Shown piece after piece: positions 1 to 25,666 of a stretch of DNA of 64,000 bases. Both the position numbers and the translations under genes were made by a program. The notes beneath the pieces were generated by a model that made no database searches, was not told the DNA's origin, and saw only the letters and a program-made list of their open reading frames with translations. The stretch is from NCBI RefSeq assembly GCF_053078305.1, contig NZ_CP166879.1; one strand, 5' to 3'. Every line of letters begins with the position of its first letter. Within the stretch, counting starts at the first letter, position 1.

Positions 1-1339
1 GTTTGTTCATCAGAAAGTACGTTGATAGCATCGTTCAGCGCACGTTGTGCTTCTGCTTCCGCCAGACCTTTTTTACGCGTAGCTTCAGCTAACTCAACGA
101 TCGCCGCCGCCTGCATCTCTGCGGCTTCTTTTTCTGCTTTTGCCCGCACGGTCAGTTCAACCGCTTTGGTTTCTGCATCCTGCGCGGCAGCGATTAGGGC
201 AACTTGTTTAGCACGATCGGCTTCTGCGGTCTGGCGAGTGGTTTCAACGTTTTGTTGGGCGCTTACTGCTTCTGCGAGTGCAAGGTTAGCACGCGCTTCT
301 GCCTGGGACTGTTGTTCCGATTTGGCGGCAATAGCGATCGATTTCGTCTGGTTAGCGATTTCGGTGACCTGCTGCTGTTCGATCTCTTTAATGCGAACTT
401 CACGTTCAGCTTCAACTTTTCTTGAGCGGACGGCCTGTTCGCGGTCGATTTCTGTTTCCTGAATCTGTCGTTCAGCCAGAATTCGCGTCTGCTCTGCTTC
501 ACGACGACGTTCAGCTTCAAAAGCCGCAATTTTCGCATTCTGCTCAGCGGTACGGGTTTTAACCTGCTGCTCCTGCTCAAGCGTCATAAACGCTTCTTGT
601 TGTTCAATCTCCAACTTGCGCGAAAGTGCATCACGGTTTTTCTCACGCACCGCAACTTCTACATCCTGTTCAACTTCGTTACGCTCGCGGCGACGGCGCT
701 CCGTCTCCTGAGTCAGTTTGGTTAAACCTTCGGCGTCAAAGGCATTGTTCGGATTGAAATGTTCTTTCGAGGTCTGGTTAAAGTTGGTAAGTGAAACGCT
801 TTCCAGTTCCAGGCCGTTTTTCGACAGATCTTCAGCTACGGTATTTTGTACTCCCTGCACGAAGTTCTCGCGGGTATCCTGTAACTCATGCATGGTCATT
901 TGCGCAGCTGTTGCACGGAGGGCATCGACAAATTTATCTTCAACCAACATACGTAAGTCTTCAGGCGACAGGGTGCGTTGCCCCAGCGTCTGGGCAGCGG
1001 TGGCAATCCCTTCTACTGAAGGTTTTACCCGCACAAAGAAAGCGACTACTACATCGACGCGCATACGATCTTTCGTAATCAGGCTATCAATGGTTGAGCG
1101 GCTGACTTCCAGCTTCAGAGTATTCATATTGATGGGGATTATTTCATGAAAGATCGGCATCACGATTGCGCCACCGCTCATTACCACTTTTTGCCCACCT
1201 AAACCAGTACGAACAAAAGCTTGCTCTGCCGAAGCGCGACGATAGAGCCTGGCGAAAATAATTCCAATAATAAACAGAATGCATACGGCAATAATCGCGG
1301 TAAACATCCAGGAGGGCACAGAATTAACAATATCATCCA
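1..1339 (-). CDS. yqiK: Flotillin-like SPFH/band-7 inner-membrane protein YqiK, 5' portion (about 446 codons); 3' end lies beyond the window start
   Basis: Reverse-strand translation from ATG at 1337-1339 reads MDDIVNSVPSWMFTAIIAV..., one N-terminal TM helix then a long E/R/Q-rich coiled-coil region; AAGGA Shine-Dalgarno upstream; 27 nt downstream of yqiJ. Not in the ORF track because it has no stop inside the window. Confidence 0.85.
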
Positions 1340-1366
1340 TTATTAAATTTCCTTTTGATTAATAAA

Positions 1367-1996
1367 TTACAATATTTGGGGCCAGGGATTGTTTTCCGCC
1401 AAATATCGCGTTGCAGAAAGTCGGCAAATAATTAACACTTTGTCTCCTTTAGTGAAAATTTTTCCTTCTTCAGGCTCCAGTAGTAAATAATGTATTTGGC
1501 CAAATTGATCGGTGAGTTTTCCTTCGCAGGGATTACCTGAAGTGGCTTGATGACCGGTAATTAATGCCATGCTACCAATATATTCTTCTTCTGTAATAGC
1601 TGAACTATGGTCGCGTGGAATCCAGGGCGCAACTATTTTACCGGTATAATGCACCGCAATAATCGTAAACAGTAAACTGACAGGAACCACGAACAGGTTC
1701 GACAGTGGTGATTGCCAGACCATGATGCAGGCATGCTGCAACAGGATGCCAATAAGACCAAAAAAACCAGCCAGCAAGCAGAGAACGACGAGAGCTGGCA
1801 ATCTTCCGATATTGAGATAATGAAGTGCCTGGCTAATATGACCTGTGGTTATGGAATCATAATGGTCAAGATGTGCATCAAGAGCACCGGAGAGCATGTG
1901 ACCGCAGATAAGCGCAAAAATTTCTAAAAGGCCGATCAACAGTACAAAGGAAATAGCGAAAAGATAAGGGGTATTATAGTCGGCGAATAAAATCAT
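1367..1996 (-). CDS. yqiJ: Inner-membrane protein YqiJ
   Basis: 209 aa ORF with several hydrophobic helices, immediately upstream of and co-oriented with yqiK; protein recognised from memory. Confidence 0.85.
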
Positions 1997-2264
1997 ATGT
2001 CACTCCAATGTCCATTTAGTGACGCAATATTTACTTTGGGATAGTTTCCTTGCTTACATTTATCTTTGTTAATAATAACACATGTTAGAGAAGTTCTGGA
2101 AGAGAAAGTCTTTTAATATGGTTTTTTATTTTTCACTAAAAAGTGTGATCGAGGACAATATATTTACGCACGTTATGTTTAAAGGCACTACACTGATTGG
2201 GGAATACTGAAATCAGAAAAAGCATATGGCCTTAAAAGGTATGCGATAACCGGAGGATGTGCTT

Positions 2265-2465
2265 ATGGATCATAGTCTTAATTCTTTAAATAATTTCGAT
2301 TTCCTGGCGCGTAGTTTTGCCAGAATGCACGCAGAAGGTCGCCCGGTCGATATTCTGGCCGTTACTGGTAACATGGATGAAGAACATAGAACCTGGTTTT
2401 GCGCACGTTATGCCTGGTATTGCCAACAGATGATGCAAACCAGAGAACTTGAATTAGAACACTGA
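2265..2465 (+). CDS. glgS: GlgS, small glycogen-synthesis/motility-associated protein
   Basis: ORF track 2259..2465; product [29 protein letters not shown]... recognised (66 aa from the second ATG). Confidence 0.9.
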
Positions 2466-2470
2466 TATTA

Positions 2471-2492
2471 CGGGCCGTCTGGCCCGTTTTTG
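2471..2492 (+). terminator. Intrinsic terminator after glgS
   Basis: GC hairpin cgggcc-gtct-ggcccg followed by TTTTT, 6 nt after the glgS stop. Confidence 0.6.
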
Positions 2493-2499
2493 TGTTGCT

Positions 2500-2799
2500 T
2501 TATTCTGCTTTATCAATAGGCGGGATAGCCGGAGGAGATTGAAGATCTGCTACCGAATTATTGCGCGCTTCCAGTTCACTGATGCGCTGCTCCAGTAACG
2601 CCAGTTTTTCACGAGTCCGTAACAGGACTTGCGTCTGTACGTCGAATTCTTCGCGGCTCACCAGATCGAGACGCGTCAGCTGCGCTTGTAGGGTTTGGCG
2701 GATTTTTTTCTCCACATCTTCCCCGAACTCCCTGATTCCTTTAGGCATTGATTCGTGAACCTGGCGAGCGATTTGCTCAATTTTTTTCGGGTCAATCAT
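2500..2799 (-). CDS. ubiK: Ubiquinone biosynthesis accessory factor UbiK (YqiC)
   Basis: ORF track 2500..2859; recognised protein starts at the internal Met [32 protein letters not shown]..., coiled-coil-like C-terminus. Confidence 0.85.
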
Positions 2800-2919
2800 T
2801 GTAGTTTCCCTGTACTGATAGGTGTTGAGTGCCATTGTAGTGCGATAAGGGTAAGTCATAAACCAGAATTATGTGAAGCTATGCGTTGCTGCCGCTAATC
2901 ATTAGCGTTATAGTGAATC

Positions 2920-3072
2920 CGCTTATTCTCAGGGCGGGGCGAAATTCCCCACCGGCGGTAAATCAACTCAGTTGAAAGCCCGCGAGCGCTTTGGGTGCGA
3001 ACTCAAAGGACAGCAGATCCGGTGTAATTCCGGGGCCGACGGTTAGAGTCCGGATGGGAGAGAGTAACGATT
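2920..3072 (+). promoter_or_regulatory. FMN riboswitch (RFN element) in the ribB leader
   Basis: Conserved RFN blocks visible: agggcggggcgaaattccccaccggcggtaaa ... cccgcgagcgc ... ggacagcagatccggtgtaattccggggccgacggttagagtccggatgggagag, about 100 nt upstream of the ribB ATG. Confidence 0.85.
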
Positions 3073-3174
3073 CTGTCGGGCATGGACCCGCTCACGTTAT
3101 TTTGGCTATATGCCGCCACTCCTAAGACTGCCCTGATTCTGGTAACCATAATTTTAGTGAGGTTTTTTTTTACC

Positions 3175-3828
3175 ATGAATCAGACGCTACTTTCCTCTTT
3201 TGGTACGCCTTTCGAACGTGTTGAAAATGCACTGGCTGCGCTGCGTGAAGGACGCGGTGTAATGGTGCTTGATGATGAAGACCGTGAAAACGAAGGTGAT
3301 ATGATCTTCCCGGCAGAAACCATGACTGTTGAGCAGATGGCGCTGACCATTCGCCACGGTAGCGGTATTGTTTGCCTGTGCATTACTGAAGATCGCCGTA
3401 AACAACTCGATCTGCCAATGATGGTAGAAAATAACACCAGCGCCTATGGCACCGGTTTTACCGTGACCATTGAAGCGGCTGAAGGTGTGACTACCGGTGT
3501 TTCTGCCGCTGACCGTATTACGACCGTTCGCGCAGCGATTGCCGATGGCGCAAAACCTTCTGATCTGAATCGCCCGGGCCACGTTTTCCCACTTCGCGCG
3601 CAGGCAGGTGGAGTACTGACGCGTGGCGGTCATACTGAAGCGACTATTGATCTGATGACGCTGGCAGGCTTTAAACCGGCTGGTGTGCTGTGTGAGCTGA
3701 CTAATGACGATGGCACGATGGCGCGTGCACCAGAGTGTATTGAGTTTGCCAATAAACACAACATGGCGCTCGTGACTATTGAAGACCTGGTGGCATACCG
3801 TCAGGCACATGAGCGTAAAGCCAGCTGA
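3175..3828 (+). CDS. ribB: 3,4-dihydroxy-2-butanone 4-phosphate synthase
   Basis: 217 aa from ATG at 3175 ([48 protein letters not shown]...); the ORF-track upstream extension from 3082 overlaps the riboswitch and is rejected. Confidence 0.95.
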
Positions 3829-3859
3829 AAACCGCTGCTTAATTTACTGCCTTAATCAA

Positions 3860-3896
3860 GAAACCGAAGTTGTAGCAGGCTTCGGTTTTTATTTTT
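3860..3896 (+). terminator. Intrinsic terminator after ribB
   Basis: Hairpin aaccgaag-N10-cttcggtt followed by a T-rich run (tttttattttt). Confidence 0.6.
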
Positions 3897-4089
3897 CCCT
3901 GCTATGCAAGATGTTAATTCCGCTTCTCTTTCTATGAGAAAATTTCATTAATATCAGGCATTCTTTTTCATTATGATCAAAATCATATAATTGTTCCGTT
4001 ATTATGCGACCATATGAATATATCCGAAAAAGGATATGTGAAATTTATGCGCTAAATGTTTAGTATTGTTAAATATTAAGGGTAAAAGG

Positions 4090-4260
4090 ATGTTTATCGC
4101 CTGGTACTGGATTGTATTGATTGTTCTGGTTGTGGTGGGTTATTTCCTGCATTTGAAACGTTATTGTCGGGCATTTCGCCAGGACAGAGACGCACTGCTT
4201 GAAGCGCGGAACAAATACTTAAACAGTACGAGAGAAGAGACAGCCGAAAAGGTAGAATAA
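4090..4260 (+). CDS. Hypothetical small membrane protein (56 aa from ATG; ORF track starts at TTG 4066)
   Basis: MFIAWYWIVLIVLVVVGYFLHLKRY... has one clear TM helix then a charged tail; AAGGG about 10 nt upstream of the ATG. No homolog recognised. Confidence 0.4.
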   Translation: MFIAWYWIVLIVLVVVGYFLHLKRYCRAFRQDRDALLEARNKYLNSTREETAEKVE

Positions 4261-4278
4261 GGCTTTAGTGAAACTAGC

Positions 4279-4307
4279 AGAAGTTGTCCATGCGCTGGAC
4301 AACTTCT
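4279..4307. terminator. 12-bp stem hairpin between the convergent small ORF and zupT (possible terminator)
   Basis: agaagttgtcca-tgcgc-tggacaacttct perfect inverted repeat; only a weak T tract on either strand. Confidence 0.4.
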
Positions 4308-4317
4308 GATGTTGCTT

Positions 4318-5091
4318 TTAACCAATTCCCGCCGTTTGTAGCAGCACTAAACTGAATCCCATCACTGACATTCCACATAGTACGCCATAGCTGGGGTTAT
4401 TATTAGGGTCAATCTCTTTGGCGAGCGGCATTAATTCATCAACCGAGAGCGCCACCATAATTCCTGCAACCGCCGCCATGATTGCCGCCATGACCACGGG
4501 GGAAATCATGCTACCGAGGATTAACCACGCCAGCACACCACCAAGAATTTCTGCCAATCCAGAAATCCCCGCCCACAGAATTGCCGTGCGTTTAGAACCC
4601 GTTGCTGCATAAACCGGGCCTGCAACCGCCAGACCTTCAGGAATATTGTGCAACGCGACGGCCAGTGCGATGCCAAATCCCAGCTCCAGGTTGCTGCTTG
4701 CCGTGACAAAGGTGGCAATCCCTTCCGGGAAGTTATGCAGACTGATGCCGAGAGTGAGCAGAATGGCTGTGCGCTTGATCGATTTTGGCAACGGCTGCAC
4801 CGATTTTTGCATTAAATCCTGCGGATGCGCATGTGGCAACATGCGGTCCAGGCCAAAATAGCCAAGCAGACCGAAGATAAACATTCCATAACCCAACACA
4901 GGCGACATTCCTTCAGCTGCTAGTGCGGCAGGAAGCATTTCCATTAATGAGATGAGCAACATGATCCCCGCCGCAAATCCTAGCGAAAACGCCAGTAAGC
5001 GGTTCGAGGGTTTTTGCCCGAGAACGCCGAGAAACGCGCCAATAAACGTGGCTGCCCCCGCCAGTATGGTCAGAATGAGAGGTACTGACAT
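4318..5091 (-). CDS. zupT: ZIP-family zinc transporter ZupT
   Basis: ORF track 4318..5133; recognised 257 aa protein starts [22 protein letters not shown]..., polytopic membrane protein with His-rich ZIP motifs (HNFPEG, HNIPEG). Confidence 0.9.
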
Positions 5092-5206
5092 CGACAACTC
5101 CTTATAAATCTTCACCTTCAGGCAGATCGTCAAAATAACTGATGATCATCATCATTGTTATCCGGGTTCTTACTCCGCCGAACAAGCGTATTGTGAGGAT
5201 ATCAAA

Positions 5207-6022
5207 ATGACACCTTTAGTTAAGGATATCATCATGTCTTCAACACGTATGCCAGCATTGTTTTTAGGTCACGGTAGTCCGATGAACGTGCTGGAAGATA
5301 ATTTGTATACCCGCAGCTGGCAGACGTTAGGGATGACATTGCCACGCCCGCAAGCGATTGTGGTAGTTTCGGCTCACTGGTTTACCCGTGGAACAGGAGT
5401 GACCGCGATGGAGACGCCGCCCACGATTCATGACTTTGGTGGCTTCCCGCAGGCGCTGTACGATACGCATTATCCTGCTCCGGGTTCGCCTGCGCTGGCA
5501 CAGCATCTGGTTGAGCTGTTAGCGCCGGTCCCGGTGACGCTGGATAAAGAAGCCTGGGGCTTTGACCACGGTTCCTGGGGCGTGCTGATTAAGATGTATC
5601 CTGACGCGGATATCCCGATGGTGCAGTTGAGTATCGATAGTAGCAAACCTGCCGCCTGGCATTTCGAAATGGGGCGAAAACTCGCGGCGCTGCGTGATGA
5701 AGGAATAATGTTGGTCGCCAGCGGCAACGTGGTGCATAACCTGCGTACAGTGAAGTGGCACGGTGATAGTTCACCGTATCCGTGGGCGACGTCGTTTAAT
5801 GAGTATGTGAAAGCGAATCTGACGTGGCAAGGGCCAGTAGAGCAGCATCCTCTGGTGAATTATCTCGACCATGAAGGTGGCGCGTTATCGAACCCAACGC
5901 CAGAGCACTATCTGCCGTTGTTGTATGTGTTAGGTGCGTGGGATGGGCAGGAGCCAATTACCATTCCGGTCGATGGTATAGAAATGGGCAGTTTAAGTAT
6001 GCTGTCGGTGCAGATAGGCTAA
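5207..6022 (+). CDS. ygiD: Extradiol ring-cleavage dioxygenase class III (DOPA-dioxygenase-like) YgiD
   Basis: 271 aa ORF; recognised. Start ambiguous: ATG 5207 (SD tgagga) or ATG 5234 (SD aagga, giving 262 aa). Confidence 0.85.
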   Translation: MTPLVKDIIMSSTRMPALFLGHGSPMNVLEDNLYTRSWQTLGMTLPRPQAIVVVSAHWFTRGTGVTAMETPPTIHDFGGFPQALYDTHYPAPGSPALAQHLVELLAPVPVTLDKEAWGFDHGSWGVLIKMYPDADIPMVQLSIDSSKPAAWHFEMGRKLAALRDEGIMLVASGNVVHNLRTVKWHGDSSPYPWATSFNEYVKANLTWQGPVEQHPLVNYLDHEGGALSNPTPEHYLPLLYVLGAWDGQEPITIPVDGIEMGSLSMLSVQIG

Positions 6023-6059
6023 CAATTACCGGATGGCGAATGCCATCCGGCATCATTGA

Positions 6060-7220
6060 TTATTCAACAAAAATATGTGGATAAAACCGAGACATATCCT
6101 GGGTGATCAATGCACGGTCTTCACGAATGCCAATTCCGGCGGGTTGATCGTTCACCAGCCAGCTACCAATCAGCATATAGCTGTCGCCGAATTTCGGTAA
6201 CGGGTGGAATTGCTGAACAATCATCCCTTCTTCGCCATACGGACCTTCCGCTGCTTCAATGGTTTTGCCGTTCTCAATGATCGACACGTTTGCGCCTTCA
6301 CGGGAGAAGATCGGTTTAACCACATATTTTTCCATTTGCGGATGATCATCTTCCGCAAAATAAGCGGGCAGCAGGTTCGGGTGATTCGGGAACATCTCCC
6401 ACAGTAGCGGTAGAAGTGCCTTGTTGGAGATAATGCTCTTCCACGCCGGTTCCAGCCAGCGTACGCCTGCATCCTCCAGCTTGGTGGAAAACATCTCACG
6501 CAACATAAATTCCCACGGATACAGCTTGAACAGGTTGGAAATTACCTGATCCTGTAAATCCGTGAACTGACCTTTTTCACCTAACCCGATATCGTCAATG
6601 TAGAGGAACTCGGTAGCGATTTCAGCTTCCGTCGCGCAGTCCTGCAAATACTGAATGGTACCGCGATCTTCCACCGTGTCGCGACAGCAGGTGAGATGCA
6701 GCAACTGGAAGCCATACTGTTCACGCAGCTCAACGAAGCGATCGATCAGTTTTTCTTGCAGACTGTTAAACTGGTCGCTGCCCTCCGGCAAGTTACCGGC
6801 GTTAAGCTGATCTTCCAGCCAGATCCACTGAAAGAACGCCGCCTCGTATAGTGACGTTGGCGTATCGGCGTTATTTTCCAGAAGTTTAGGTTCGCCAGTG
6901 CCATCCCACGCCAGATCAAGACGCGAATAAAGCGATGGCTGGTGCGTCAGCCATGACTGGCGCACAAAACTCCAGGTGTGTTTTGGTATGCGGAATTTGG
7001 TCATCAGCTCATCGCTGGCGATCACTTTTTCCACCACTTTCAGGCACATCTGGTGCAGTTTGGCGGTGACTTCTTCCAGCTTTTCAACCTGGGCGAGGGT
7101 CAACTTGTAGTAAGCATCTTCACACCAGTACGGCTCGCCGTACATGGTGTGAAAATTGAAACCGTATTCGTGGGCTTTCTCACGCCAGTCCGGGCGCTCG
7201 GTAATACTGACTCTTTCCAT
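6060..7220 (-). CDS. ygiC: Glutathionylspermidine-synthetase-like ATP-grasp protein YgiC
   Basis: 386 aa ORF; C-terminal half is clearly paralogous to the C-terminus of gss in this same window ([21 protein letters not shown] versus LWTVIPGNKAILPILWSLFPHH). Confidence 0.9.
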
Positions 7221-7225
7221 CGGTA

Positions 7226-7897
7226 TCAGCCACCCATTGAACGAGAAGAGGTACCGGTTGCGCTACGCTGCATAGTGCTTTGTTTGGCAACAGATTCACC
7301 AAAACCGCCACGGGTAACGGTAGTGGTGGTCGCCGGTTTTGGTGCCATGGCTGTCTTCGGTACGGTCATGGTGCGGCCTGGCTGGGCTGCGCCATAGTTT
7401 TTACCCGTCGCGTCGGTATATTTACCGTAAGCCGGGCTGGCTGGGTTTTTCGAGGAGAACAGCGGCTGCTGTGCAAATCCCGCACCGCCGCCCATCAGAC
7501 GACCCATCATGTAACCGGCCATCAGCGGCATCCAGAAACTCCCGCTGGATTGCTGGGCCTGCGCCTGGTTTTCTGGTGCCATGCCAGCCTGGGCTGGTGC
7601 CTGCTGGCACTGACCTTCACCAAATTCAGCAACACAGTCTTCACGGGTGGCGTATTTCGGCGCAGTACGTTCGGCTTCTTTCAGCGCATTGTTGTACGCG
7701 GTGGTACATTCGGCGCTTTTGCCTGGGTTTGCAGCTGAACAGTCGTCAGCATTTTGATAGAGAGACACTGTTTCATCACTCTTTTCACAGCCAGCCAGCA
7801 TAAAAACAGTGGCAACTGCGAGAGCGACTGGTGTCAGATGGCGTGCGCTCCAGTTTTTGCGGAACGATGCGTGGCGTATGGATTTTGTCCGTTTCAT
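7226..7897 (-). CDS. ygiB: DUF1190-family protein YgiB
   Basis: ORF track 7226..7930; recognised 223 aa protein starting [16 protein letters not shown]... with a lipoprotein-like signal (LAGC); 5 nt downstream of ygiC. Confidence 0.85.
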
Positions 7898-8044
7898 TTT
7901 TGTCTTCCGGGACCAGTGGTAAATACCCATCAGAATAGAGGATGGCTGGTCGAAATTGAAGCGAGAAGGGGGAAGAATGCGGCAGATAACCCGTATCTTT
8001 ACGTTGCCTTACGTTCAGACGGGGCCGAAGCCCCGTCGTCGTCA

Positions 8045-9526
8045 TCAGTTACGGAAAGGGTTATGACCGTTACTGGTGGTAGTGCGTGCGGATGTTTGCT
8101 GAACGACGGGTGCAGGGCTATCAGGCGCATAACCATCAGCAATAGCATTCTGTTCCGGCGTTTGCGGGGCAACGTTTTCCGGATTAGTGGAAACCGGTTT
8201 GCTCAGCGCATTGTTCAGTGCCAGCAGATCCTGCTCGTTCAATGTACCCAGGGCTGACTTAATATTCAGCTGATTAATCAGGTAGTTATAACGCGCATTC
8301 GCCAGCTCTTGCTTGGCGTTGTACAGCGTGGTGGTCGCATCCAACACATCAACAATGGTACGCGTACCGACCGAGTAGCCCGCTTCCATCGCGTCTAATG
8401 AGCTTTGGGCGGAAACCACGGCTTGTTTGTAGGCGTTAATACTACTGATAGAAGCATTAATGTTGTTGAAGGAGGAACGTACGGTTTGCACGACGCTACG
8501 ATGCGCGCTTTCCAGTTGCTCGCTGGCACCAACAAAGTTGTACTGGGCCTGTTTCACCTGCGAGTTAACCATTCCGCCCTGATAAATCGGCAGCGAGAAG
8601 CTCAGGCCAACTTTGTTCTGGCCCATATTGCTATCGTCATACTGGGTACCAGCGGCACCACGGGTTTTCGAACCGCTATAAGAGGTGTCAGAAATCCCGG
8701 TAGAAGCCGTTAAATCCAGAGTCGGTAAGTGACCATCCTGCGCCTGGCGAATTTGCTCGCGCGCCAGGTCCTGGCTCAAGCGTGCCTGTAACAGCGACAG
8801 GTTGCGTTTTTCGGCTTCTTTCAGCAGCGCGTTAACCGGCTGTGGTTTGTCGGTTTTAAAGTTTTCGACATTCAGCGCCGCCAGTTCCGGATAGTAGTTA
8901 CCGGTGATCTGGCGCAGCTGCTCTACCGCGTTATCAAGGTTATTACGTGCGGTCACTTCGTTCGCCAGCACGGTATCGTACTGCGCGCGGGCGTTCTGCA
9001 CGTCGGTGATCGCTACCAGGCCCACGTTAAAACGTTGGGTGGTTTGATCTAATTGACGGTAGATCGCTTCTTTTTGCGCCTGTGTATAGGAAAGAACGTC
9101 AATAGCATTCAACACGTTGAAATAAGCGGTCGCGGTGTTGAGGATCAAGGTTTGCTGATCGGTCTGATACGTGACGTCCTGAATCCCTGCTGCTTTTTCC
9201 TGCAGCGTTAACGCACGCCATTTCGACATATCAAAAATGGATTGAGTTAACTGCAGGGACGCACTGGTCGCGTTAGAGTTGATGCCGTTCGCGTCGCGGT
9301 AGCCGTTGCTATAGGTGTAATCTGCACCTAAACCAAGCTGTGGCAGTAATGGACTGCGCGCTTCATTAATTTTTTCAAAGGCAGCATCACGATCGGCGGC
9401 AGACTTACGCAATTCCGGGTTACTAAGGCGTGCTTGCTGATAAACTTGCATCAGGTTCTCGGCCTGGCTCAACGAACTGAACCCAGAAAGGCTCAGGCCG
9501 ATAAGAATGGGGAGCAATTTCTTCAT
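8045..9526 (-). CDS. tolC: Outer-membrane efflux channel TolC
   Basis: ORF track 8045..9565; recognised 493 aa protein starts MKKLLPILIGLSLSGFSSLSQA (signal peptide) and ends ...SNGHNPFRN. Confidence 0.95.
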   Translation of the reverse strand: MKKLLPILIGLSLSGFSSLSQAENLMQVYQQARLSNPELRKSAADRDAAFEKINEARSPLLPQLGLGADYTYSNGYRDANGINSNATSASLQLTQSIFDMSKWRALTLQEKAAGIQDVTYQTDQQTLILNTATAYFNVLNAIDVLSYTQAQKEAIYRQLDQTTQRFNVGLVAITDVQNARAQYDTVLANEVTARNNLDNAVEQLRQITGNYYPELAALNVENFKTDKPQPVNALLKEAEKRNLSLLQARLSQDLAREQIRQAQDGHLPTLDLTASTGISDTSYSGSKTRGAAGTQYDDSNMGQNKVGLSFSLPIYQGGMVNSQVKQAQYNFVGASEQLESAHRSVVQTVRSSFNNINASISSINAYKQAVVSAQSSLDAMEAGYSVGTRTIVDVLDATTTLYNAKQELANARYNYLINQLNIKSALGTLNEQDLLALNNALSKPVSTNPENVAPQTPEQNAIADGYAPDSPAPVVQQTSARTTTSNGHNPFRN

Positions 9527-9730
9527 TTGCATTCCTTGTGGTGAAGCAGTATTTAGCGCGATCAAACTGTAAAATTATTGCGGATTCTAGCAGAAGCCGC
9601 TACCGCAAAAGGTTGGCGTTACGTGCCATAGGGCGTTAATGTGCCTCAATTTAACACATGACTGCTCAAACGGCAGTCAAACGTCGCTGAAATTCACATT
9701 TAATTCACTATTAGTGCCAGGACATTAACA

Positions 9731-10360
9731 ATGCTTAAGCCAGACAACCTGCCCGTTACATTTGGCAAAAACGATGTAGAAATTATTGCACGAGAAACAC
9801 TTTATCGCGGCTTTTTTTCATTAGATCTTTATAGATTTCGTCATCGTCTATTCAACGGGCAAATGAGTCATGAGGTACGGCGGGAAATTTTTGAGCGCGG
9901 TCACGCCGCAGTCTTGCTACCCTTTGACCCAGTGCGTGATGAAGTTGTGCTGATTGAGCAGATTCGAATTGCCGCGTACGACACTAGCGAAACCCCCTGG
10001 CTACTGGAGATGGTTGCCGGGATGATTGAAGAGGGTGAAAGTGTGGAAGATGTTGCCCGTCGCGAAGCGATTGAAGAGGCGGGGCTGATAGTCAAACGGA
10101 CCAAACCGGTGTTAAGTTTCCTGGCAAGCCCGGGGGGCACCAGTGAGCGTTCGTCAATTATGGTGGGCGAAGTGGACGCCACGACCGCAAGCGGTATTCA
10201 CGGTCTGGCTGATGAAAACGAAGATATTCGCGTTCATGTGGTAAGCCGGGAACAGGCATACCAGTGGGTAGAAGAGGGGAAAATCGACAACGCAGCGTCG
10301 GTCATCGCTTTGCAATGGCTGCAGCTGCATCATCAAGCGTTAAAAAATGAGTGGGCATAA
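9731..10360 (+). CDS. nudF: ADP-ribose pyrophosphatase (Nudix hydrolase)
   Basis: 209 aa; Nudix box visible ([22 protein letters not shown]); divergent from tolC. Confidence 0.9.
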
Positions 10361-10783
10361 ATGAAGCGTTACACACCTGACTTTCCTGAAATGATGCGCC
10401 TGTGCGAGATGAACTTTTCACAATTGCGCCGTTTGTTACCGCGCAATGACGCACCCGGCGAAACTGTAAGCTATCAGGTGGCAAACGCACAATATCGGCT
10501 GACGATTGTGGAATCGACCCGATACACTACCCTGGTGACAATAGAACAGACTGCGCCCGCGATCAGTTACTGGAGCCTTCCGTCAATGACGGTGCGTCTG
10601 TATCATGACGCGATGGTGGCTGAAGTGTGTTCAAGCCAGCAGATTTTTCGCTTCAAAGCGCGGTATGATTATCCTAATAAAAAGTTGCATCAACGCGACG
10701 AAAAGCATCAAATTAACCAGTTTTTAGCGGACTGGTTGCGATACTGTTTAGCACATGGAGCGATGGCGATTCCGGTTTACTAG
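10361..10783 (+). CDS. yqiB: DUF1249-family protein YqiB
   Basis: 140 aa ORF starting immediately after the nudF stop; recognised. Confidence 0.85.
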
Positions 10784-10807
10784 CGTCGTGAAACCTAAGG
10801 ACACCAT

Positions 10808-11635
10808 TTGGAAAGCCTGTTAACCCTTCCTCTGGCTGGTGAGGCCAGAGTCAGGATTTTACAAATTACCGATACTCACCTGTTTGCACAAAAGCACGAA
10901 GCCCTCTTAGGGGTAAACACCTGGGAAAGCTACCAGGCGGTGCTGGAGGCGATTCGTCCACACCAGCACGAATTCGACCTGATTGTCGCGACAGGTGATT
11001 TAGCGCAGGATCAATCCTCTGCGGCCTATCAGCATTTCGCTGAAGGCATCGCAAGTTTTCGTGCGCCCTGCGTCTGGCTGCCGGGCAACCACGATTTCCA
11101 GCCCGCGATGTACAGCGCGTTACAGGATGCGGGTATCTCCCCGGCGAAGCGGGTGTTTATTGGTGAGCAATGGCAAATCCTGTTGCTGGATAGCCAGGTG
11201 TTTGGCGTGCCGCACGGTGAGCTAAGCGAGTTTCAGCTTGAGTGGCTGGAACGTAAACTGGCTGATGCGCCAGAGCGCCATACGTTGCTGCTGCTGCATC
11301 ATCATCCGCTACCTGCGGGTTGTAGTTGGCTTGATCAACACAGCCTGCGTAACGCGGGCGAACTGGATACCGTGCTGGCGAAGTTTCCGCACGTCAAATA
11401 CTTGCTGTGCGGTCATATTCATCAGGAGCTGGATCTCGACTGGAACGGTCGCCGCCTGCTGGCAACGCCGTCGACCTGTGTGCAGTTTAAGCCGCACTGT
11501 TCCAACTTTACGCTGGATACTATCGCGCCCGGCTGGCGTACTCTCGAGTTACATGCTGATGGCACGCTGACCACCGAGGTGCATCGCCTGGCGGACACAC
11601 GTTTCCAACCTGATACCGCTTCAGAAGGCTACTGA
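10808..11635 (+). CDS. cpdA: 3',5'-cyclic AMP phosphodiesterase CpdA
   Basis: 275 aa; metallophosphoesterase motifs ([18 protein letters not shown]); ORF track start is a TTG codon. Confidence 0.9.
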
Positions 11636-12216
11636 TGTCTACGCTTCTTTATTTACACGGTTTCAACAGCTCGCCGCGCTCTGCAAAAGCGAGCTTGTTA
11701 AAAAACTGGCTGGCGGAACATCACCCTGACGTTGAGATGATCATTCCGCAGTTGCCGCCGTATCCTTCCGACGCGGCAGAGCTGCTGGAATCCATTGTCC
11801 TAGAACATGGCGGCGATTCGCTGGGTATTGTCGGTTCGTCACTGGGGGGATATTACGCCACCTGGTTGTCACAATGTTTTATGCTGCCCGCAGTGGTGGT
11901 AAACCCGGCGGTGCGCCCGTTTGAACTGCTGACGGACTATCTCGGTCAGAACGAGAACCCCTACACCGGGCAGCAATATGTGCTAGAGTCACGCCATATT
12001 TACGATCTTAAAGTCATGCAGATTGACCCGCTGGAAGCGCCGGATTTGATCTGGCTGCTGCAACAGACGGGAGATGAAGTGCTGGATTACCGCCAGGCGG
12101 TGGCGTACTACGCTTCCTGCCGCCAGACTGTCATAGAAGGCGGCAACCACGCATTCACGGGCTTCGAAGATTATTTCAACCCGATCGTCGATTTTCTTGG
12201 TCTGCACCATCTCTGA
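11635..12216 (+). CDS. yqiA: Esterase YqiA (alpha/beta hydrolase)
   Basis: 193 aa; [16 protein letters not shown]... with nucleophile-elbow motif GSSLGG; start overlaps the cpdA stop. Confidence 0.9.
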
Positions 12217-12241
12217 CGATCAACTCGAATTGCTAACTTAA

Positions 12242-14137
<1,896 letters not shown>

Positions 14138-14165
14138 TAATCCTCCCGCCAGAAGAATAAAACAT

Positions 14166-14198
14166 AGCCCGGTATACAAGTGTATACCGGGCTTTTTT
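14166..14198 (+). terminator. Intrinsic terminator after parE
   Basis: Hairpin agcccggtatac-aag-tgtataccgggct followed by TTTTTT; the receptor gene stop codon sits 3 nt beyond the T tract. Confidence 0.7.
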
Positions 14199-14200
14199 GA

Positions 14201-16342
14201 TCAAAATTCCATTTTCACCGTGAATTGCACTTCACGCGGATCGCCAATCTGATTCCCCAGATTATTTGTGGCGATGGAAGAGGTGTAATACGTTTTATCA
14301 AACAGGTTTTTGACGTTTAATTGCAGTGTGACCGGATACTGCAATTTCATTTTGTATGCGGCGAAGGCATCGGCAACGAAATAGCCTGGCAGATAATAGT
14401 CAGCCCCATTGGTTGCCGAACGACGGCTTACGCCATGTCCACCACCGCCAAACGTCAGTGTGTTATTGCCAGGCATGTTATGAATGTCATAGGTCAGGAA
14501 TAGCGAACCGGTATGACGAGGAACATTCGGCAATGGTTTCCCTGCATAATCAGGATCTTCCAGAACCTTAGCATCGGTATAGCCGTAGCTGGCAATGATA
14601 TTAATGTTTTCAGTTAATGCTCCCGCAAGGTCGACTTCTACCCCTCTTGAACGAACGCGGCCTGCCGTTTTGGCGATGGTTTCATCACCAATACTTTCGG
14701 TATACAACACGTTACGTTTATGGATATCAAACAGCGCAATATCTGCGGTTATACCATCGAACAGCTCGAATTTTGCCCCGACTTCGTAAGCATTAGATGA
14801 TTCCGGTGGAAGATCTCCGATGTAGCTGGCAATTGACGATTGCGGCATAAATGTTTGCGAATAATTAGCAAATAAGGATACCGATGGCGTCAGTTTGTAG
14901 ACTAACCCCAGTTTGGGCGTCCATTGTTCATCGCGGCTGTCAGTATTGACATTAAAAGGACGGCCTTTACCCGCATACTGCGTGTAATACTGATAGCGGA
15001 TCCCGGCGACGGCAATCCAGTTATCGGTCAGATAGAGCGCATCCTGTGCATAAGCTGAGTAGCTCTCCTGTTTGATCGTCTGATCACTGTCCGACGCCGA
15101 AACCGTTGTGCATTTGCTGGTATTGCCATAAACGGGGTTGTAGATATTGAAATCTTTAGCGTTTTTACAGCGAATCATATCTGTGCGCAGAAGATCATAA
15201 TATTCATATGACACCCCACCCAGAATCTCATTATAGAACCCAGCAATATCAACATTCCCTTGCAGATCCGCACGAGTAGAATGCATACGCTGGGTAGATC
15301 CCTGAGTTGCATCAACACGCCGTGTCAGCGTTCCTGTCGTTGCATCATACGCGGTAACGCGAGCCTGATTGTCGCTGTATTTATCCTGGCTGTAGCTGTA
15401 ATCAAAGCGCGCTGTCCACTGGCTATTGAGATGATATTCTGCGTTGAGTTGCGCCAGATCGGACTGACCATCTGTAATATTAAACGGTTCGTCAAAACGT
15501 ATTTTTCGATCAACGTTTACGGGCTGTTTCGTCGTAAGGTCGAAAATCGTTCCACGATCGAACGGAGTTTTATAGTCCCGATGGGAATAGAGCATGGTTA
15601 CTGTTGCATTATCACCAAACCAGGTGAGTGACGGGGCAATAAATGTACTGCGCTCTTTACCGAAGTTTCGCCAGTAATCTTCATCCTGCACTTCCCCCGT
15701 CAGGCGGTATGCCAGCTGAGTGCCTTCAATGGGACCTGTGATATCAAGTTGCCCAGTGCCTCCGCCAAAACTGGAGGACGTGGCTGAGACAGAACCATGG
15801 AATGTTTTTTCCGGGCGCTTGGTCACGACGTTAATCAATCCACCAGGATCGAGAATGCCATACAGCGTGGAGGCCGGACCTTTTAGCACTTCCACACGTT
15901 CTGTGGCGGCGTTGAAACTGCGAGGAAGTACAGTTCGCAGGCCGTTGGTCATGATGGAGCCATCCCGGTTAGCACCAAACCCACGACGTACAAAGGCGTC
16001 CTGAGTTCCGCCTAATGTATTGGTCTGTACCACGTTACTGACGTTATAAAGCGCTTCATCCAGCGTCGTTGCATTCTGATTTTCCAGAACCTGATCGCTA
16101 ACCGTATTGACCACCTGCGGGATATCCAGCATCGGCATATCGGTTAATGTCGCCGTGGAAGTGCTCAGAGGTTGATAACCATCGGTCGCCTCAGTTGCGG
16201 TATTTGCATCCGCTGTAACAGTGATTGTTTCGCCATCTTTGGTCGTTGCAGTGTCGGTTGCATGAATCATTGGTGCTGCAAAGAGCAGTGAAAAGAGCGC
16301 CCGACCTTTGATTCCTGAGAATGAAGGTGTGAACTTAGCCAT
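14201..16342 (-). CDS. TonB-dependent outer-membrane receptor, siderophore-receptor-like (accessory island; possibly fitA)
   Basis: 713 aa; signal peptide (MAKFTPSFSGIKGRALFSLLFAAPMIHA), TonB-box-like ETITVTA, plug then beta-barrel, C-terminal aromatic residue (...FTVKMEF). Confidence 0.9.
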   Translation of the reverse strand: MAKFTPSFSGIKGRALFSLLFAAPMIHATDTATTKDGETITVTADANTATEATDGYQPLSTSTATLTDMPMLDIPQVVNTVSDQVLENQNATTLDEALYNVSNVVQTNTLGGTQDAFVRRGFGANRDGSIMTNGLRTVLPRSFNAATERVEVLKGPASTLYGILDPGGLINVVTKRPEKTFHGSVSATSSSFGGGTGQLDITGPIEGTQLAYRLTGEVQDEDYWRNFGKERSTFIAPSLTWFGDNATVTMLYSHRDYKTPFDRGTIFDLTTKQPVNVDRKIRFDEPFNITDGQSDLAQLNAEYHLNSQWTARFDYSYSQDKYSDNQARVTAYDATTGTLTRRVDATQGSTQRMHSTRADLQGNVDIAGFYNEILGGVSYEYYDLLRTDMIRCKNAKDFNIYNPVYGNTSKCTTVSASDSDQTIKQESYSAYAQDALYLTDNWIAVAGIRYQYYTQYAGKGRPFNVNTDSRDEQWTPKLGLVYKLTPSVSLFANYSQTFMPQSSIASYIGDLPPESSNAYEVGAKFELFDGITADIALFDIHKRNVLYTESIGDETIAKTAGRVRSRGVEVDLAGALTENINIIASYGYTDAKVLEDPDYAGKPLPNVPRHTGSLFLTYDIHNMPGNNTLTFGGGGHGVSRRSATNGADYYLPGYFVADAFAAYKMKLQYPVTLQLNVKNLFDKTYYTSSIATNNLGNQIGDPREVQFTVKMEF

Positions 16343-16715
16343 TTAGTCTGTTATCCCAAAAACTCACGGATTGTCGTGAGTGAAAATTGTTTCTTGTTGC
16401 TCACTAAGCACTATCCGTTTGTTATTTCACCATCGGATATGTAATTGAGAATCATTCAACCATGCGGTAATGTAGTAGTAAATGAGAAATAACAAAAAAT
16501 TGCTACATGTGTTTTTTTGAGAGGTTAATGCAATTCAATTGATGGTAATTTATTAATATTTAATGATTTTATTTTTATCTTTAAAAATATTTCACCTGTT
16601 ATTTACCTTGTTTTTGTATGGCTTTTAACTTCTTGACTACTACATTTTGTGGCGTCAAACTCTCAAAAGAGAATGAGTTTTATTTTTGTTTGTCTTTGAT
16701 TAAGTTGGCGTACAC
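16343..16715. promoter_or_regulatory. Divergent promoter region between the receptor gene and the ABC-transporter operon; contains a Fur-box-like motif
   Basis: 373 bp AT-rich non-coding spacer; around 16438-16459 tatgtaattgagaatcattcaac partially matches the GATAATGATAATCATTATC Fur consensus. Not scored with a PWM. Confidence 0.4.
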
Positions 16716-17525
16716 GTGGCACATAACGCAAAAGGGCAGGGGCTGATCCTCGACAATGTTTCTGCCGGGTATCACAAGAAAATCATTGTTGATGGTGTTT
16801 CTTTCTCCGTTCCCACAGAAAAAATGACCGTTCTGGTTGGGGCAAACGGCTGTGGAAAGTCGACGTTGCTCAGCACCATTGCACGTATCTTGCAACCCAT
16901 GGGCGGCTCAATATTGCTGGATGGTAAAGCGATTCACGAGCAACCAACGAAAGCGTTATCCCGTAGACTTGGGATCTTGCCGCAGTCGCCATTATTGCCG
17001 GAGGGCTTAACCGTTTATGAACTGGTGTCGCGTGGGCGTTTTCCCTGGCAAAATTTCATACGTCAATGGAGCGACGCCGACGAGCAGGCGGTAGAAGAGG
17101 CCCTGAAATTAACCGGTACGCAGGAGTTTGCTCATTTACCTGTTGAAAAACTCTCTGGTGGGCAGCGCCAGCGTTGCTGGATTGCGATGGTGTTGGCGCA
17201 AAAGACGCCTTATATCCTACTGGATGAACCCACAACCTGGCTTGATTTACGTTATCAGGTTGAAATTCTTGAGTTATTACATGATTTAACGCGTCATCAC
17301 GGGCGTACAGTCGTCGTGGTGTTGCATGATCTGAATTTTGCCGTCAATTATGGTGATACGTTGATATTTTTACGCCAGGGGAAAGTGGTGCGTGTGTTGA
17401 ATGAGGGGGAGCATTGCACGCCTGAGCTGGTAAAAGCTGTCTTTGACGTTGATGTTCACGCATCAATAAATACTCTGACGGGAAAGCCGTTCTTCATGCC
17501 GTTTCGTGGTGTAGAAAAAGTATGA
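16716..17525 (+). CDS. ABC transporter ATP-binding protein, iron-siderophore (FepC/FecE-like) type
   Basis: Walker A GANGCGKST, ABC signature LSGGQRQR, Walker B ILLDEPT; GTG start at 16716 is uncertain. Confidence 0.85.
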   Translation: MAHNAKGQGLILDNVSAGYHKKIIVDGVSFSVPTEKMTVLVGANGCGKSTLLSTIARILQPMGGSILLDGKAIHEQPTKALSRRLGILPQSPLLPEGLTVYELVSRGRFPWQNFIRQWSDADEQAVEEALKLTGTQEFAHLPVEKLSGGQRQRCWIAMVLAQKTPYILLDEPTTWLDLRYQVEILELLHDLTRHHGRTVVVVLHDLNFAVNYGDTLIFLRQGKVVRVLNEGEHCTPELVKAVFDVDVHASINTLTGKPFFMPFRGVEKV

Positions 17526-18505
17526 TGCGCACAGGGCTGGTTACTGTAATTTTCCTCACCTTACTGCTGGTGGGATGCGTGGTATATCCAGGGATTGGTG
17601 CCCGATTTATTGCACCACAAACGGTGTTGCAGGCATTTCTTCATTTTGATCCGCAAAACTTCGATCACAGCGTAATTGTAAGACTCCGTTTGCCGCGTTT
17701 AGCGGCAGCATTGCTTACCGGTGCTTCTCTTGGTGTTGCCGGTGCTTTGTTGCAGGCTGTCATTCGTAACCCATTGGGGGAGCCACATATTTTAGGCTTA
17801 AATGCCGGAGCCGCTCTTGCTGTCGTTGCCGCCAGTGCGCTTGGACTGGCCTTTCCGGCTGGACGCCCACTGCTGGCATCTACGGGGGGCGCGTTATTGT
17901 TCCTGTTGATATTGCTGCTTTCCTCCGCAGGGCGTTCAGGGTTAACGCCAATGAAAGTTACTTTATGCGGCGTGGCGCTATCGGCGTTCGTGTCCTCAAT
18001 AACGGCTGCAATCCTGATTCTTGACGAACAAACACTGCTGGCGATGCGGACATGGCTAGCAGGTGATTTAGCGGGGCAGGATTGGGTGACGCTGGGTACG
18101 TCCGTCTGGTTTTCTCTGGGGGGATTTGTGTTAGCCATTTACCTTGCGCCCTCTCTTAACATGTTGGCACTGGGTGATCGCATGGCGCAGGGGCTGGGCG
18201 TCTCGGTACTCCGCACGCGAACATTCACCCTGCTTGCGATCGCGTTGCTCTGTGGCGCAGCCGTATCGATTGCTGGCCCCATTGGTTTTGTCGGCCTGCT
18301 AGTACCGCAGATTGTCCGGCGTCTGGTATCAGCGGATCTGCGCGTTCTGCTCCCTCTTTCAGCTTGTGTCGGCGCGCTTTTGTTATTACTGGCAGATATT
18401 ATTGCTCGGACGCTCTTCACGCCCCATGAGTTAGCGACCGGTGTCATGACGGCGTTAGTTGGTGCGCCTGTTTTTGTCATTATGGCGACGAGGATGTTCA
18501 AATGA
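17522..18505 (+). CDS. ABC transporter permease, FecCD family
   Basis: 327 aa polytopic membrane protein; start overlaps the ATPase stop and its stop overlaps the next start (ATGA), indicating translational coupling. Confidence 0.85.
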   Translation: MMRTGLVTVIFLTLLLVGCVVYPGIGARFIAPQTVLQAFLHFDPQNFDHSVIVRLRLPRLAAALLTGASLGVAGALLQAVIRNPLGEPHILGLNAGAALAVVAASALGLAFPAGRPLLASTGGALLFLLILLLSSAGRSGLTPMKVTLCGVALSAFVSSITAAILILDEQTLLAMRTWLAGDLAGQDWVTLGTSVWFSLGGFVLAIYLAPSLNMLALGDRMAQGLGVSVLRTRTFTLLAIALLCGAAVSIAGPIGFVGLLVPQIVRRLVSADLRVLLPLSACVGALLLLLADIIARTLFTPHELATGVMTALVGAPVFVIMATRMFK

Positions 18506-19551
18506 GTCGGATAATGAACGTCGGGCTACGCCCACTACGTGTTGGTAAGTTTTCGACACTGGTACGCCCTAAAAATCTGGTGTTGCTTGGTGGGCTGTTT
18601 CTGTTTGCGGTTGGAATACTGATATTCGGTCTGATGCATGGTTCTTTTTCTGTCCCGGCATCGGAAGTAGGACGAGCGTTGTTTGCTCCAGAAAACGTAA
18701 GCACAGACGCACGTTATATTGTGCAGGATATTCGCTTGCCGAGAGTCATCATGGCATTGCTATGCGGAGCCATGTTAGGTATGGCGGGGGCCGCGATGCA
18801 ATCCATTGCGCGTAACGGCCTTGCCGATCCTGGTTTAATCGGCGTCAAAGAAGGATGTAGCGTGGCGGTGCTGTGGCTGATTTTCCAGTTTCCAATGCTG
18901 GGAATGTTCTGGCGTCCAGTGGCTGGTCTTGCTGGTGGCTTGTTGGTGGCTTTAATCGTGATTTTTTGTGCACGCGATATTTCCCGCCCGCGATTTGTTC
19001 TGATTGGTATTGGTGTTTCCTGGTTTTTCGCCGCCGGTATCGGTGTATTTATGACCACTGCAGATGTTCGAGATGTACAAACTGCATTGATGTGGTTATC
19101 GGGAAGCCTGCATGCAGCTAACTGGATGTTAGTCGGTATTTCAGCCTGTTGGATGTTGCCAGCCACTCTTTTATTGCTGTTCACCGCCAGGACGGCGGAT
19201 ATCGCTCTGCTTGGTCATCAGGTTGCAACCGGGTTAGGGGTGAATAGTTCTCGTCTGGCGTTGTTACGTGTCGCCGCACCAATAATCCTGACAGCCGTCT
19301 GCGTTTCGTGTGTTGGTAACATCGGTTTTGTCGGATTGATAGCACCCCATATATCACGTTTTATTCTACGTGGCGGGCAGACGACATTACTGCTGGGGAG
19401 CGCCGTATCGGGGGCGTTGTTAGTCATCCTGGCGGATAGCATTGGTCGTTTGGCTTTTTTGCCTTTGCAACTGCCTGCCGGAATCATTATTTCATTGATT
19501 GGTGGACCATTCTTTTTGCTACTGCTCTGGCAGTGCAGGAACAGTTTTTAA
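18502..19551 (+). CDS. ABC transporter permease, FecCD family (second subunit)
   Basis: 349 aa polytopic membrane protein paralogous to the preceding permease. Confidence 0.85.
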   Translation: MSRIMNVGLRPLRVGKFSTLVRPKNLVLLGGLFLFAVGILIFGLMHGSFSVPASEVGRALFAPENVSTDARYIVQDIRLPRVIMALLCGAMLGMAGAAMQSIARNGLADPGLIGVKEGCSVAVLWLIFQFPMLGMFWRPVAGLAGGLLVALIVIFCARDISRPRFVLIGIGVSWFFAAGIGVFMTTADVRDVQTALMWLSGSLHAANWMLVGISACWMLPATLLLLFTARTADIALLGHQVATGLGVNSSRLALLRVAAPIILTAVCVSCVGNIGFVGLIAPHISRFILRGGQTTLLLGSAVSGALLVILADSIGRLAFLPLQLPAGIIISLIGGPFFLLLLWQCRNSF

Positions 19552-19561
19552 TGGGAGTTAT

Positions 19562-20509
19562 ATGCGTTTATTTTTTTCTCTGCTGATACTGTTGTCATTC
19601 TTTGCCCGCGCGACAGAACCTGTTCAGGTCTTTACTGATGATTTAGGGCGCAAAGTCACTGTTCCTGCTCATCCAAAGAGAATTGTCTCTTTACACGATC
19701 TTGATATCACTATTCCTCTGATTGAGCTCGGTGTACCTCCTGTCGCCAGCCACGGGCGAACTCGGCCTGACGGTAGCCATTTCATTCGATCAGGCGCGTT
19801 ATTGACAGGTGTCGACTTTGATAATTCATCGATCGCTTTTATTGGCACCGCTGATATTGATATTGAAGCGATTGTGGCGGCAAAGCCTGACCTGATTATC
19901 ACAGAACCGACCCGTAATACGCCCATTGAACAACTGGAAAAAATTGCGCCCACGGTGAGCATTGATCATCTCAAAGGAGGCGCGCCAGAAATCTACCGCA
20001 AGCTGGCAGAACTGACAGGAACGCAGTCGCAGCTGGCGATACTTGAACGCCGCTATCAGGCACAAATCAATGCGCTGAAGGCGACGCTGGACAGCCAAAA
20101 AATAACGGTATCGGTGATTCAGGCAAATCAGGGAAAAATTAATGTGATGCATAGCTATCATTCGCTGGGGCGGGTATTACGCGATGCTGGTTTTCGCTTT
20201 CCGCCGCTGATTGAGAGCATTCCTGAAGGTGGGCGAATGGATGTGAGCGCGGAGCGTTTACCTGAACTGGATGCCGATTTTGTTTTTGCAACCTGGCGCG
20301 GTGACACCGGTGGTAAACCTCAGGATGAGCTGGCAGCAATGGAAAAAGTCATGCCGGGATGGTGTCAGTTTCTGACTGCCTGTCGTTCCGGGCGTTATGT
20401 GCTGATTTCTCGTGAAGAGGCAATTTCTAACTCCTTTGCATCTCTGGGGCTGATGGCTGCGCAGATACAATCACAAATTGCGGGGCGACCTTTACCGGAG
20501 GCCAAATGA
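19562..20509 (+). CDS. Periplasmic substrate-binding protein (FepB/FhuD-like) of the ABC importer
   Basis: ORF track 19499..20509; preferred start is ATG 19562 (SD gggag) giving signal peptide MRLFFSLLILLSFFARA. Confidence 0.8.
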   Translation: MRLFFSLLILLSFFARATEPVQVFTDDLGRKVTVPAHPKRIVSLHDLDITIPLIELGVPPVASHGRTRPDGSHFIRSGALLTGVDFDNSSIAFIGTADIDIEAIVAAKPDLIITEPTRNTPIEQLEKIAPTVSIDHLKGGAPEIYRKLAELTGTQSQLAILERRYQAQINALKATLDSQKITVSVIQANQGKINVMHSYHSLGRVLRDAGFRFPPLIESIPEGGRMDVSAERLPELDADFVFATWRGDTGGKPQDELAAMEKVMPGWCQFLTACRSGRYVLISREEAISNSFASLGLMAAQIQSQIAGRPLPEAK

Positions 20510-21393: not shown

Positions 21394-21401
21394 TCTGACC
21401 T

Positions 21402-21430
21402 GAGGCCGGTAGCAACACCGGCCTCTTTTC
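21402..21430 (+). terminator. Intrinsic terminator after the RpiR-family gene
   Basis: Hairpin gaggccggt-agcaac-accggcctc followed by TTTT, directly before the ygiN stop on the opposite strand. Confidence 0.6.
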
Positions 21431-21437
21431 AGGAATG

Positions 21438-22364: not shown

Positions 22365-22473
22365 TTTTTAACCTCAAGGTGAGACGTTTGCCGACTATAG
22401 TACGTCACAGAGCGGTACGGTGAAATTAGCAAAATGTGCAAAGTCTTTTGCGAATTTAGCAAAAGTCTTACCC

Positions 22474-25558: not shown

Positions 25559-25666
25559 TGGGGAATCTTTACCGGAGTGTGAGCCAAATCACTCGCGATA
25601 AGTTTGAGCGAACAATGCCACAGGCGTATTGTTGTTGGGCTTATAATTTCTCCGGTAAGGAATACC

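Follow-up and report, generated by a model that had tools for sequence, protein, structure and literature searches.

The tight glgS–ubiK junction as the probable ancestral state of a locus that holds a fimbrial operon in Escherichia coli K-12

The convergent genes glgS and ubiK (yqiC) can be found either directly tail to tail or separated by a Yqi-like chaperone–usher fimbrial operon, as is the case in E. coli K-12. This raises the question of which arrangement came first, and thus whether K-12-type strains gained the fimbrial genes or lineages with a tight junction lost them. The question is addressed here for a stretch of 64,000 nucleotides (contig NZ_CP166879.1 of assembly GCF_053078305.1; referred to throughout as the window), in which 34 bp separate the two genes. 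Earlier work has already described the strain-variable presence or absence of the Yqi-like operon (Wurpel et al. 2013, PMC3559732; Antao et al. 2009, PMC2771359). Both of these papers also describe a related operon, Yqi/ExPEC adhesin I (EA/I), and the former reports that Yqi-like fimbriae are associated with phylogroups A, B1, D and E, and that Yqi (B2) and Yqi-like operons lie at separate loci and exclude one another.

The glgS stop codon ends at position 2465, and the ubiK stop codon, on the minus strand, occupies 2500–2502. The features of the region are as follows.

Up to 1340, minus strand: yqiK, assigned by ORF and homology.
1367–1996, minus strand: yqiJ, an ORF of 209 aa, 100% identical to K-12 YqiJ (tblastn) and annotated yqiJ in the colinear strain 1504D004.
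2265–2465, plus strand: glgS, 66 aa, with yqiJ as its left neighbour.
2423–2671, no strand: junction haplotype block; the 26 fixed differences near the junction that separate empty from occupied alleles all lie here.
2466–2499, no strand: glgS–ubiK intergenic gap, 34 bp, between convergent genes lying tail to tail.
2470–2487, plus strand: hairpin, with a T-run following, from terminator scan and folding.
2497–2568, minus strand: segment of 72 bp without a counterpart in K-12 or O26, delimited by blastn breakpoints.
2500–2799, minus strand: ubiK (yqiC), 99 aa, with a C-terminal tail of putatively ancestral type.
2921–3069, plus strand: FMN riboswitch upstream of ribB (Rfam RF00050, 120.9 bits, E = 4e-29).
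3175–3828, plus strand: ribB, its product 100% identical to K-12 RibB.
3829–4089, no strand: ribB–yqiD spacer, 261 bp, a second fimbrial docking site that is empty in the window.
About 4090–4260, plus strand: yqiD, assigned by ORF and homology.

The ubiK coordinates match the RefSeq annotation in the colinear strains 1504D004 and 14EC033. A tblastn search with K-12 queries (E ≤ 1e-5) found no homologs of YgiL, YqiG, YqiH or YqiI in the gap or in the rest of the 64-kb window. An earlier, sequence-only reading had described the gap as 34 bp long and free of fimbrial genes and IS elements, and both the ORF coordinates and the tblastn search bear this out; the Yqi-like chaperone–usher operon is absent from the ubiK–glgS site. 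As a structural statement on the sequence, this description is not one to which a chance test applies.

The same reading had placed the glgS terminator in the gap, which agrees with the hairpin and T-run predicted there. The stem–loop (ACGGGCC-GTCT-GGCCCGT) starts 5 nt past the glgS stop codon and consists of a 7-bp stem with six GC pairs and a 4-nt loop, GTCT; on the glgS strand it is followed by TTTTTGTGTT. It folds at −18 kcal/mol (z = −4.1 versus shuffles), and the U-tract UUUUUGUGUU lies directly past the stem. A GC-rich stem–loop right after the stop codon with such a tract is a standard predicted intrinsic (Rho-independent) terminator, here putatively that of glgS. Read on the ubiK strand, the same stem has a folding energy of −17.1 kcal/mol, and the next bases, UAAUAUCAGUGUUC, are U-poor. 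Since the sequence past the hairpin on this strand, UAAUAUCA, forms a poor U-tract, bidirectional termination is doubtful; the hairpin may also stop ubiK transcription, and then weakly. A promoter scan of positions 2000–3200 gave nothing above expectation. The stem, GGGCC-N4-GGCCC, is kept at the same place in E. albertii, Citrobacter, Salmonella, Klebsiella, Raoultella and a species representative that is labelled E. coli and is only about 90% identical to the window (L003); the loops vary.

The occupied state differs from the window by more than the presence of an operon. Between the glgS and ubiK stop codons of K-12 ER3413 lie yqiI, yqiH, an IS2-truncated usher gene, IS2 and ygiL, in all 6,608 bp. 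The earlier reading had placed a cryptic fimbrial operon plus IS2 between these genes in K-12, correctly so, and glgS and yqiC are thus not adjacent there. The O26:H11 strain 11368 carries the same operon without IS2 (5,272 bp) and without any mobility gene. In blastn alignments to K-12, window positions 1901–2496 match the glgS side and 2569–3100 the ubiK side, while the intervening 72 bp of the window and 6,637 bp of K-12 are mutually without counterpart; the breakpoints at 2496 and 2569 are identical for K-12 and O26. The gap contributes its final 3 bp to this segment; the remainder belongs to ubiK, namely its stop codon and the 22 sense codons before it. In occupied genomes the 72 bp are swapped for the fimbrial segment (5.3–6.6 kb) and another UbiK tail. 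Judged from these alignments, the K-12 state is a replacement with homeologous ends rather than a plain insertion.

The ends of this replacement are graded. The first 120 nt of ubiK and the first 150 nt of glgS are 99–100% identical between the window and K-12 or O26. Identity then falls to 84–86% in ubiK nt 121–231 (codons 41–77) and, for K-12, from 100% in glgS nt 1–150 to only 84% in nt 151–201. The divergence in ubiK nt 121–231 is at least that of E. albertii or E. fergusonii, and this part is roughly equidistant from all Escherichia sampled; the glgS end of the occupied allele is likewise more diverged from the window than E. albertii is (94%). When two occupied genomes (K-12, O26) were compared with five empty ones (the window, 14EC033, O157:H7 and two B2 strains), 26 junction-proximal fixed differences were found, all of them in 2423–2491 and 2584–2671, and none in 835–2422 or 2672–3826. 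The operon borders show no integrase, tRNA, target-site duplication or sharp ends; they consist of zones of 84–86% homeology within glgS and ubiK. The K-12 state thus lacks the features of a classical genomic island or transposon insertion.

The operon itself is variable. The Yqi-like operons of K-12 and O26:H11 (L001 and L085) represent two allele classes that differ by 5–9% in DNA and have identical junctions. Among the operon records, 1,573 are at least 99% identical to K-12 and 1,711 are 90–95% identical. In the adhesin YqiI, identity between the classes is only 87% over the first 142 residues, and the divergence of the classes is far above the normal E. coli level. The adhesin gene is frameshifted in O26:H11, and IS2 within the usher gene is confined to K-12-type and a few other genomes.

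Which state is ancestral can be judged from outgroups. Species-representative genomes were scanned with UbiK, which gave at least 80 loci; E. fergusonii and the E. coli representative are outside the loci listed. The order ubiK followed directly by converging glgS is found in E. albertii, L003, eight Citrobacter loci, S. enterica arizonae, Klebsiella and Raoultella, and in the 80 outgroup loci listed no Yqi homolog separates the two genes. E. albertii and L003 align straight through the junction of the window, as a colinear empty site would. At the 26 fixed differences, the outgroup base (that of E. albertii and/or L003) is found in the empty allele at 18 sites and in the occupied allele at 3, with 5 ambiguous. 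No remnant of the operon is detectable: blastn at word size 7 of positions 2480–2580 against the 6.6-kb K-12 insert gave chance-level matches only. Both the character states beside the junction and the missing remnant are thus those of an ancestral empty-site allele.

The UbiK tail provides a further character. UbiK has 99 aa in the window and 96 aa in K-12, with different tails; the last 22 residues in the window are encoded by the 72 bp that K-12 lacks. The tail was compared with those of 79 outgroup UbiK proteins. The motif ..PAPAIPPVD.. is common to Citrobacter, Salmonella, Enterobacter, Kosakonia and Leclercia, and tails of the form ..PAIPP[IV]D.. occur in E. fergusonii and L003; the window tail is of the same type. 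The tails of E. albertii and Klebsiella differ from ..PAIPPVD... In the protein search, the clusters with the K-12-type tail belonged to E. coli or Shigella wherever they were named. There was one diverged exception (P0022), a K-12-like UbiK of 96 aa that ends in ..ENRSTVTVVKDDQETLPPTL and is unlike the PAPAIPPVD type. It comes from an enterobacterium represented by two Logan assemblies (SRR33454298_20152, L087; ERR3179213_130767, L088), which is about 77% identical to E. coli across yqiK–yqiJ and the 5′ part of glgS. Here ubiK is followed by 191 bp and then glgS, with no fimbrial genes between them. These loci were considered as a lead to the donor of the operon and rejected, as K-12 is no nearer to them at the DNA level than the window is, and they have no fimbrial genes; to judge from their sequences, they show only that a K-12-like tail type exists outside E. 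coli.

Residue 59 of GlgS is Thr in the window and the outgroups and Ala in K-12. Outgroup synteny, the hairpin, the UbiK tail and the 18 versus 3 outgroup bases support the earlier proposal that the junction of the window is the uninterrupted state. That proposal had left gain by K-12 and clean loss by this lineage as alternatives; the outgroups and the junction bases favour the gain and speak against the loss. Sequence comparison thus supports the view that the K-12-type haplotype gained the operon and that the tight junction is ancestral and would predate the genus Escherichia.

Both states are common in E. coli. In a sample of 5,426 complete genomes, 5,425 of which have the locus, a tight and contiguous glgS–ubiK junction (98–99.8% identity) occurs in 2,063 and the K-12-type operon in 3,361 (about 62% of the sample); together these account for 5,424 of the 5,425. 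The tight-junction genomes include the B2 strains SE15, ATCC 11775 and N61, O157:H7 and O55:H7, and the closest relatives of the window. Over positions 1–14100 the window is most similar, among the genomes sampled, to 1504D004 (99.6%), followed by O55:H7 and O157:H7 strains (99.0%); all of these have the tight junction. This similarity ranking suggests a background like that of O55:H7/O157:H7; no Clermont markers lie within the 64-kb window. Since the O157:H7 and O55:H7 genomes examined lack the operon, its phylogroup distribution is less tidy than a single-clade gain would have it.

A second docking site lies close by, between ribB and yqiD, about 1.3 kb from the Yqi-like site. In the B2 strains N61 and AR_0086, which keep the tight glgS–ubiK junction, window positions 3827–3971 are replaced by about 5.5 kb holding a four-gene operon, Yqi/EA-I. 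The possibility that this operon is the B2 allele at the ubiK–glgS site was rejected on account of its position between ribB and yqiD. The window has only the 261-bp spacer there, and a blastn search (word size 7) of positions 3800–4100 against the B2 insert gave chance-level matches only. The two operons are sisters of considerable divergence, with protein identities between Yqi/EA-I and K-12 Yqi-like of 56% for the usher, 48% for the chaperone, 59% for the major subunit and 37.5% for the adhesin. E. fergusonii also carries the Yqi/EA-I operon on the ribB side; among the loci listed, those of Klebsiella, Enterobacter and some Citrobacter also have a Yqi-family operon beside ribB. In the population sample, Yqi/EA-I was found in 994 genomes, including IHE3034 (B2). 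By subtraction, about 1,070 genomes (about 20%) have neither operon; O157:H7 and the window belong to this group, and L003 is in the same state. These counts fit the published report that the two operons do not occur together in any genome. As a separate observation, the region from about 3972 to 6025 (the region upstream of yqiD, yqiD, zupT and ygiD) is only 82–93% identical between the window and B2, far below the usual level.

How the operon came to lie between glgS and ubiK can be reconstructed in outline. Very probably, the 34-bp gap is an ancestral junction that was never interrupted, and the K-12-type haplotype is derived from it by homologous-recombination import from a diverged relative. 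The import is suggested by the pattern of divergence, in which ends of 84–86% identity lie beside gene remainders that are 100% identical. We infer a donor about as distant as another Escherichia species, in which the order ubiK–operon–glgS would already have been established. The imported segment would have carried the Yqi-like operon together with the 3′ end of the donor glgS, its terminator and the 3′ half of ubiK, with crossovers inside glgS (near nt 150–158) and ubiK (near nt 120–130). The outcome would be chimeric UbiK and GlgS in K-12-type strains and retention of the native versions in the window; the IS2 in the K-12 usher gene would be a later, secondary event. As no donor with ubiK, fimbriae and glgS in this order was found outside E. 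coli among the 80 loci listed, the import is deduced from the divergence pattern alone. A very old polymorphism kept up within E. coli would leave a similar picture, and the 3 of 26 sites at which the occupied allele has the outgroup base speak against the import reading. A more comprehensive scenario can be put forward tentatively, and is rather doubtful: ribB–ubiK would be flanked by two alternative sites for sister operons, and the Yqi-like one would have entered E. coli once, by homologous recombination with DNA of an Escherichia-like donor, overwriting 19–22 C-terminal residues of UbiK and one of GlgS.

Three other explanations would leave the window with the same gap. The operon might have been present in an ancestor and lost again by homologous recombination with empty-site DNA, so that junction, tail and hairpin were restored together. 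Such an allelic reversion is improbable, yet it has some points in its favour. The haplotype block spans only about 250 bp, which implies frequent recombination around the junction, and in yqiJ (1201–2000) its identity to K-12 and O26 (98.5–99.8%) exceeds that of the window to O157 (97.8–98.0%), while the junction block is 99.5–100% identical to that of O157. On the other hand, every sampled genome that is at least 99.0% identical over 1–14100 has the tight junction, as fits vertical inheritance, and no feature of the sequence requires a formerly occupied state.

Loss by precise excision of ygiL–yqiGHI from a K-12-like ancestor is a much weaker candidate still. In its favour, some genomes have partial deletions (matches covering 41–90% of yqiI–yqiH), and IS1, IS2, IS903B or ISVsa5 inserted in the operon. 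But excision could not have brought back the 22 ancestral residues at the end of UbiK, nor a hairpin with loop and flanks of outgroup type, nor the 18 outgroup bases in the 250-bp block, and the blastn searches for a scar or remnant of the operon returned matches at chance level only. Ancestral tail and junction bases effectively refute the clean deletion, and this reading was rejected. Least credible of all, to a negligible degree, is an artefact of assembly or sampling, in which the source genome would have the operon and a repeat was collapsed or mis-joined. This was considered solely because K-12 has IS2 in the region and has no support; 2,063 complete genomes have the identical contiguous junction, outgroup species are colinear, and there is no repeat at the join. 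An ancestral, never-interrupted junction with import into the K-12-type haplotype remains the preferred reading.

The window differs from K-12 at several other places. At 54861–56156, gss (glutathionylspermidine synthetase/amidase) has an in-frame internal deletion of about 567 bp, with its junction at about 55543–55550, between 8-bp direct repeats TGGATGAA. Roughly residues 229–417 are removed, giving an ORF of 431 aa compared with 619 aa in K-12. In an even sample of 12 genomes out of 5,415 E. coli matches, the best match (99.7%) among them, all 12 have the full-length segment, so that the source strain may be alone in having the deletion. Between parE and ygiN, where K-12 has 51 bp, a 7.3-kb island (14134–21437) encodes a TonB-dependent siderophore receptor, an ABC transporter (ATPase, two FecCD-type permeases and a substrate-binding protein) and a MurR/RpiR regulator, i.e. 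functions of iron uptake; presumably it resembles the ‘fit’ iron-uptake locus. Positions 1–25000 of the window are covered to at least 80% in about 1,868 of the 5,426 genomes, which suggests that the island is polymorphic for presence and absence. The mqsR–mqsA toxin–antitoxin pair (927 bp between ygiV and ygiS in K-12) is absent at 25561–25565, as is ygiZ (592 bp between qseC and mdaB in K-12) at 22469–22473. The yghX gene, annotated as a frameshifted pseudogene in K-12, is an intact ORF at 45598–46530, with 310 aa when counted from its first GTG. Direct repeats of about 96 bp in the exbD–yghA intergenic region (42574–42669 and 42687–42781; 93.8% identical, 17 bp apart) are also present in K-12 and are probably REP/BIME-type elements.

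Since the strain-variable presence of the operon has been described before, the only mildly new detail is that its acquisition would also have rewritten the 3′ ends of ubiK and glgS. The 3′ ends of the K-12 genes for UbiK (YqiC) and GlgS appear to be recombinant, and the tail of K-12 UbiK, a putative chimera, is not the one conserved in Enterobacteriaceae. If the UbiJ–UbiK complex depends on this tail, ubiquinone biosynthesis could differ subtly between the haplotypes.

Compared with known systems, the window is closest to E. coli O157:H7, O55:H7, 1504D004 and 14EC033, which have the same gene order, the 34-bp gap, a 99-aa UbiK and no operon on either side. The window is 98.7–99.6% identical to these genomes and differs from them by point substitutions only; no match to the listed genomes exceeds 99.6% over 14–25 kb. 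K-12 resembles the window in its flanks: identity is 98–100% in yqiJ, ribB and the riboswitch, as well as over glgS nt 1–150 and ubiK nt 1–120. It differs in the length of the interval (6,608 versus 34 bp), in its 96-aa UbiK with the other tail, in Ala59 of GlgS and in the Yqi-like genes, which are present in K-12 only. The B2 strains with Yqi/EA-I share the tight junction and the 99-aa UbiK and differ by the operon between ribB and yqiD, as does E. fergusonii. More distantly, Citrobacter, Salmonella, Klebsiella and E. albertii have the same convergence and the GGGCC/GGCCC stem, with a gap of about 31–95 bp and a UbiK of about 98 aa, which in Citrobacter and Salmonella has the ..PAIPPVD.. motif; all of them differ from the window in loop bases and gap lengths. 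Several of these genera, unlike the window, carry a Yqi-family operon beyond ribB. At glgS, ubiK and ribB the window would thus show the arrangement native to Escherichia, and it is K-12, the laboratory reference, that appears to be the derived state at this locus.
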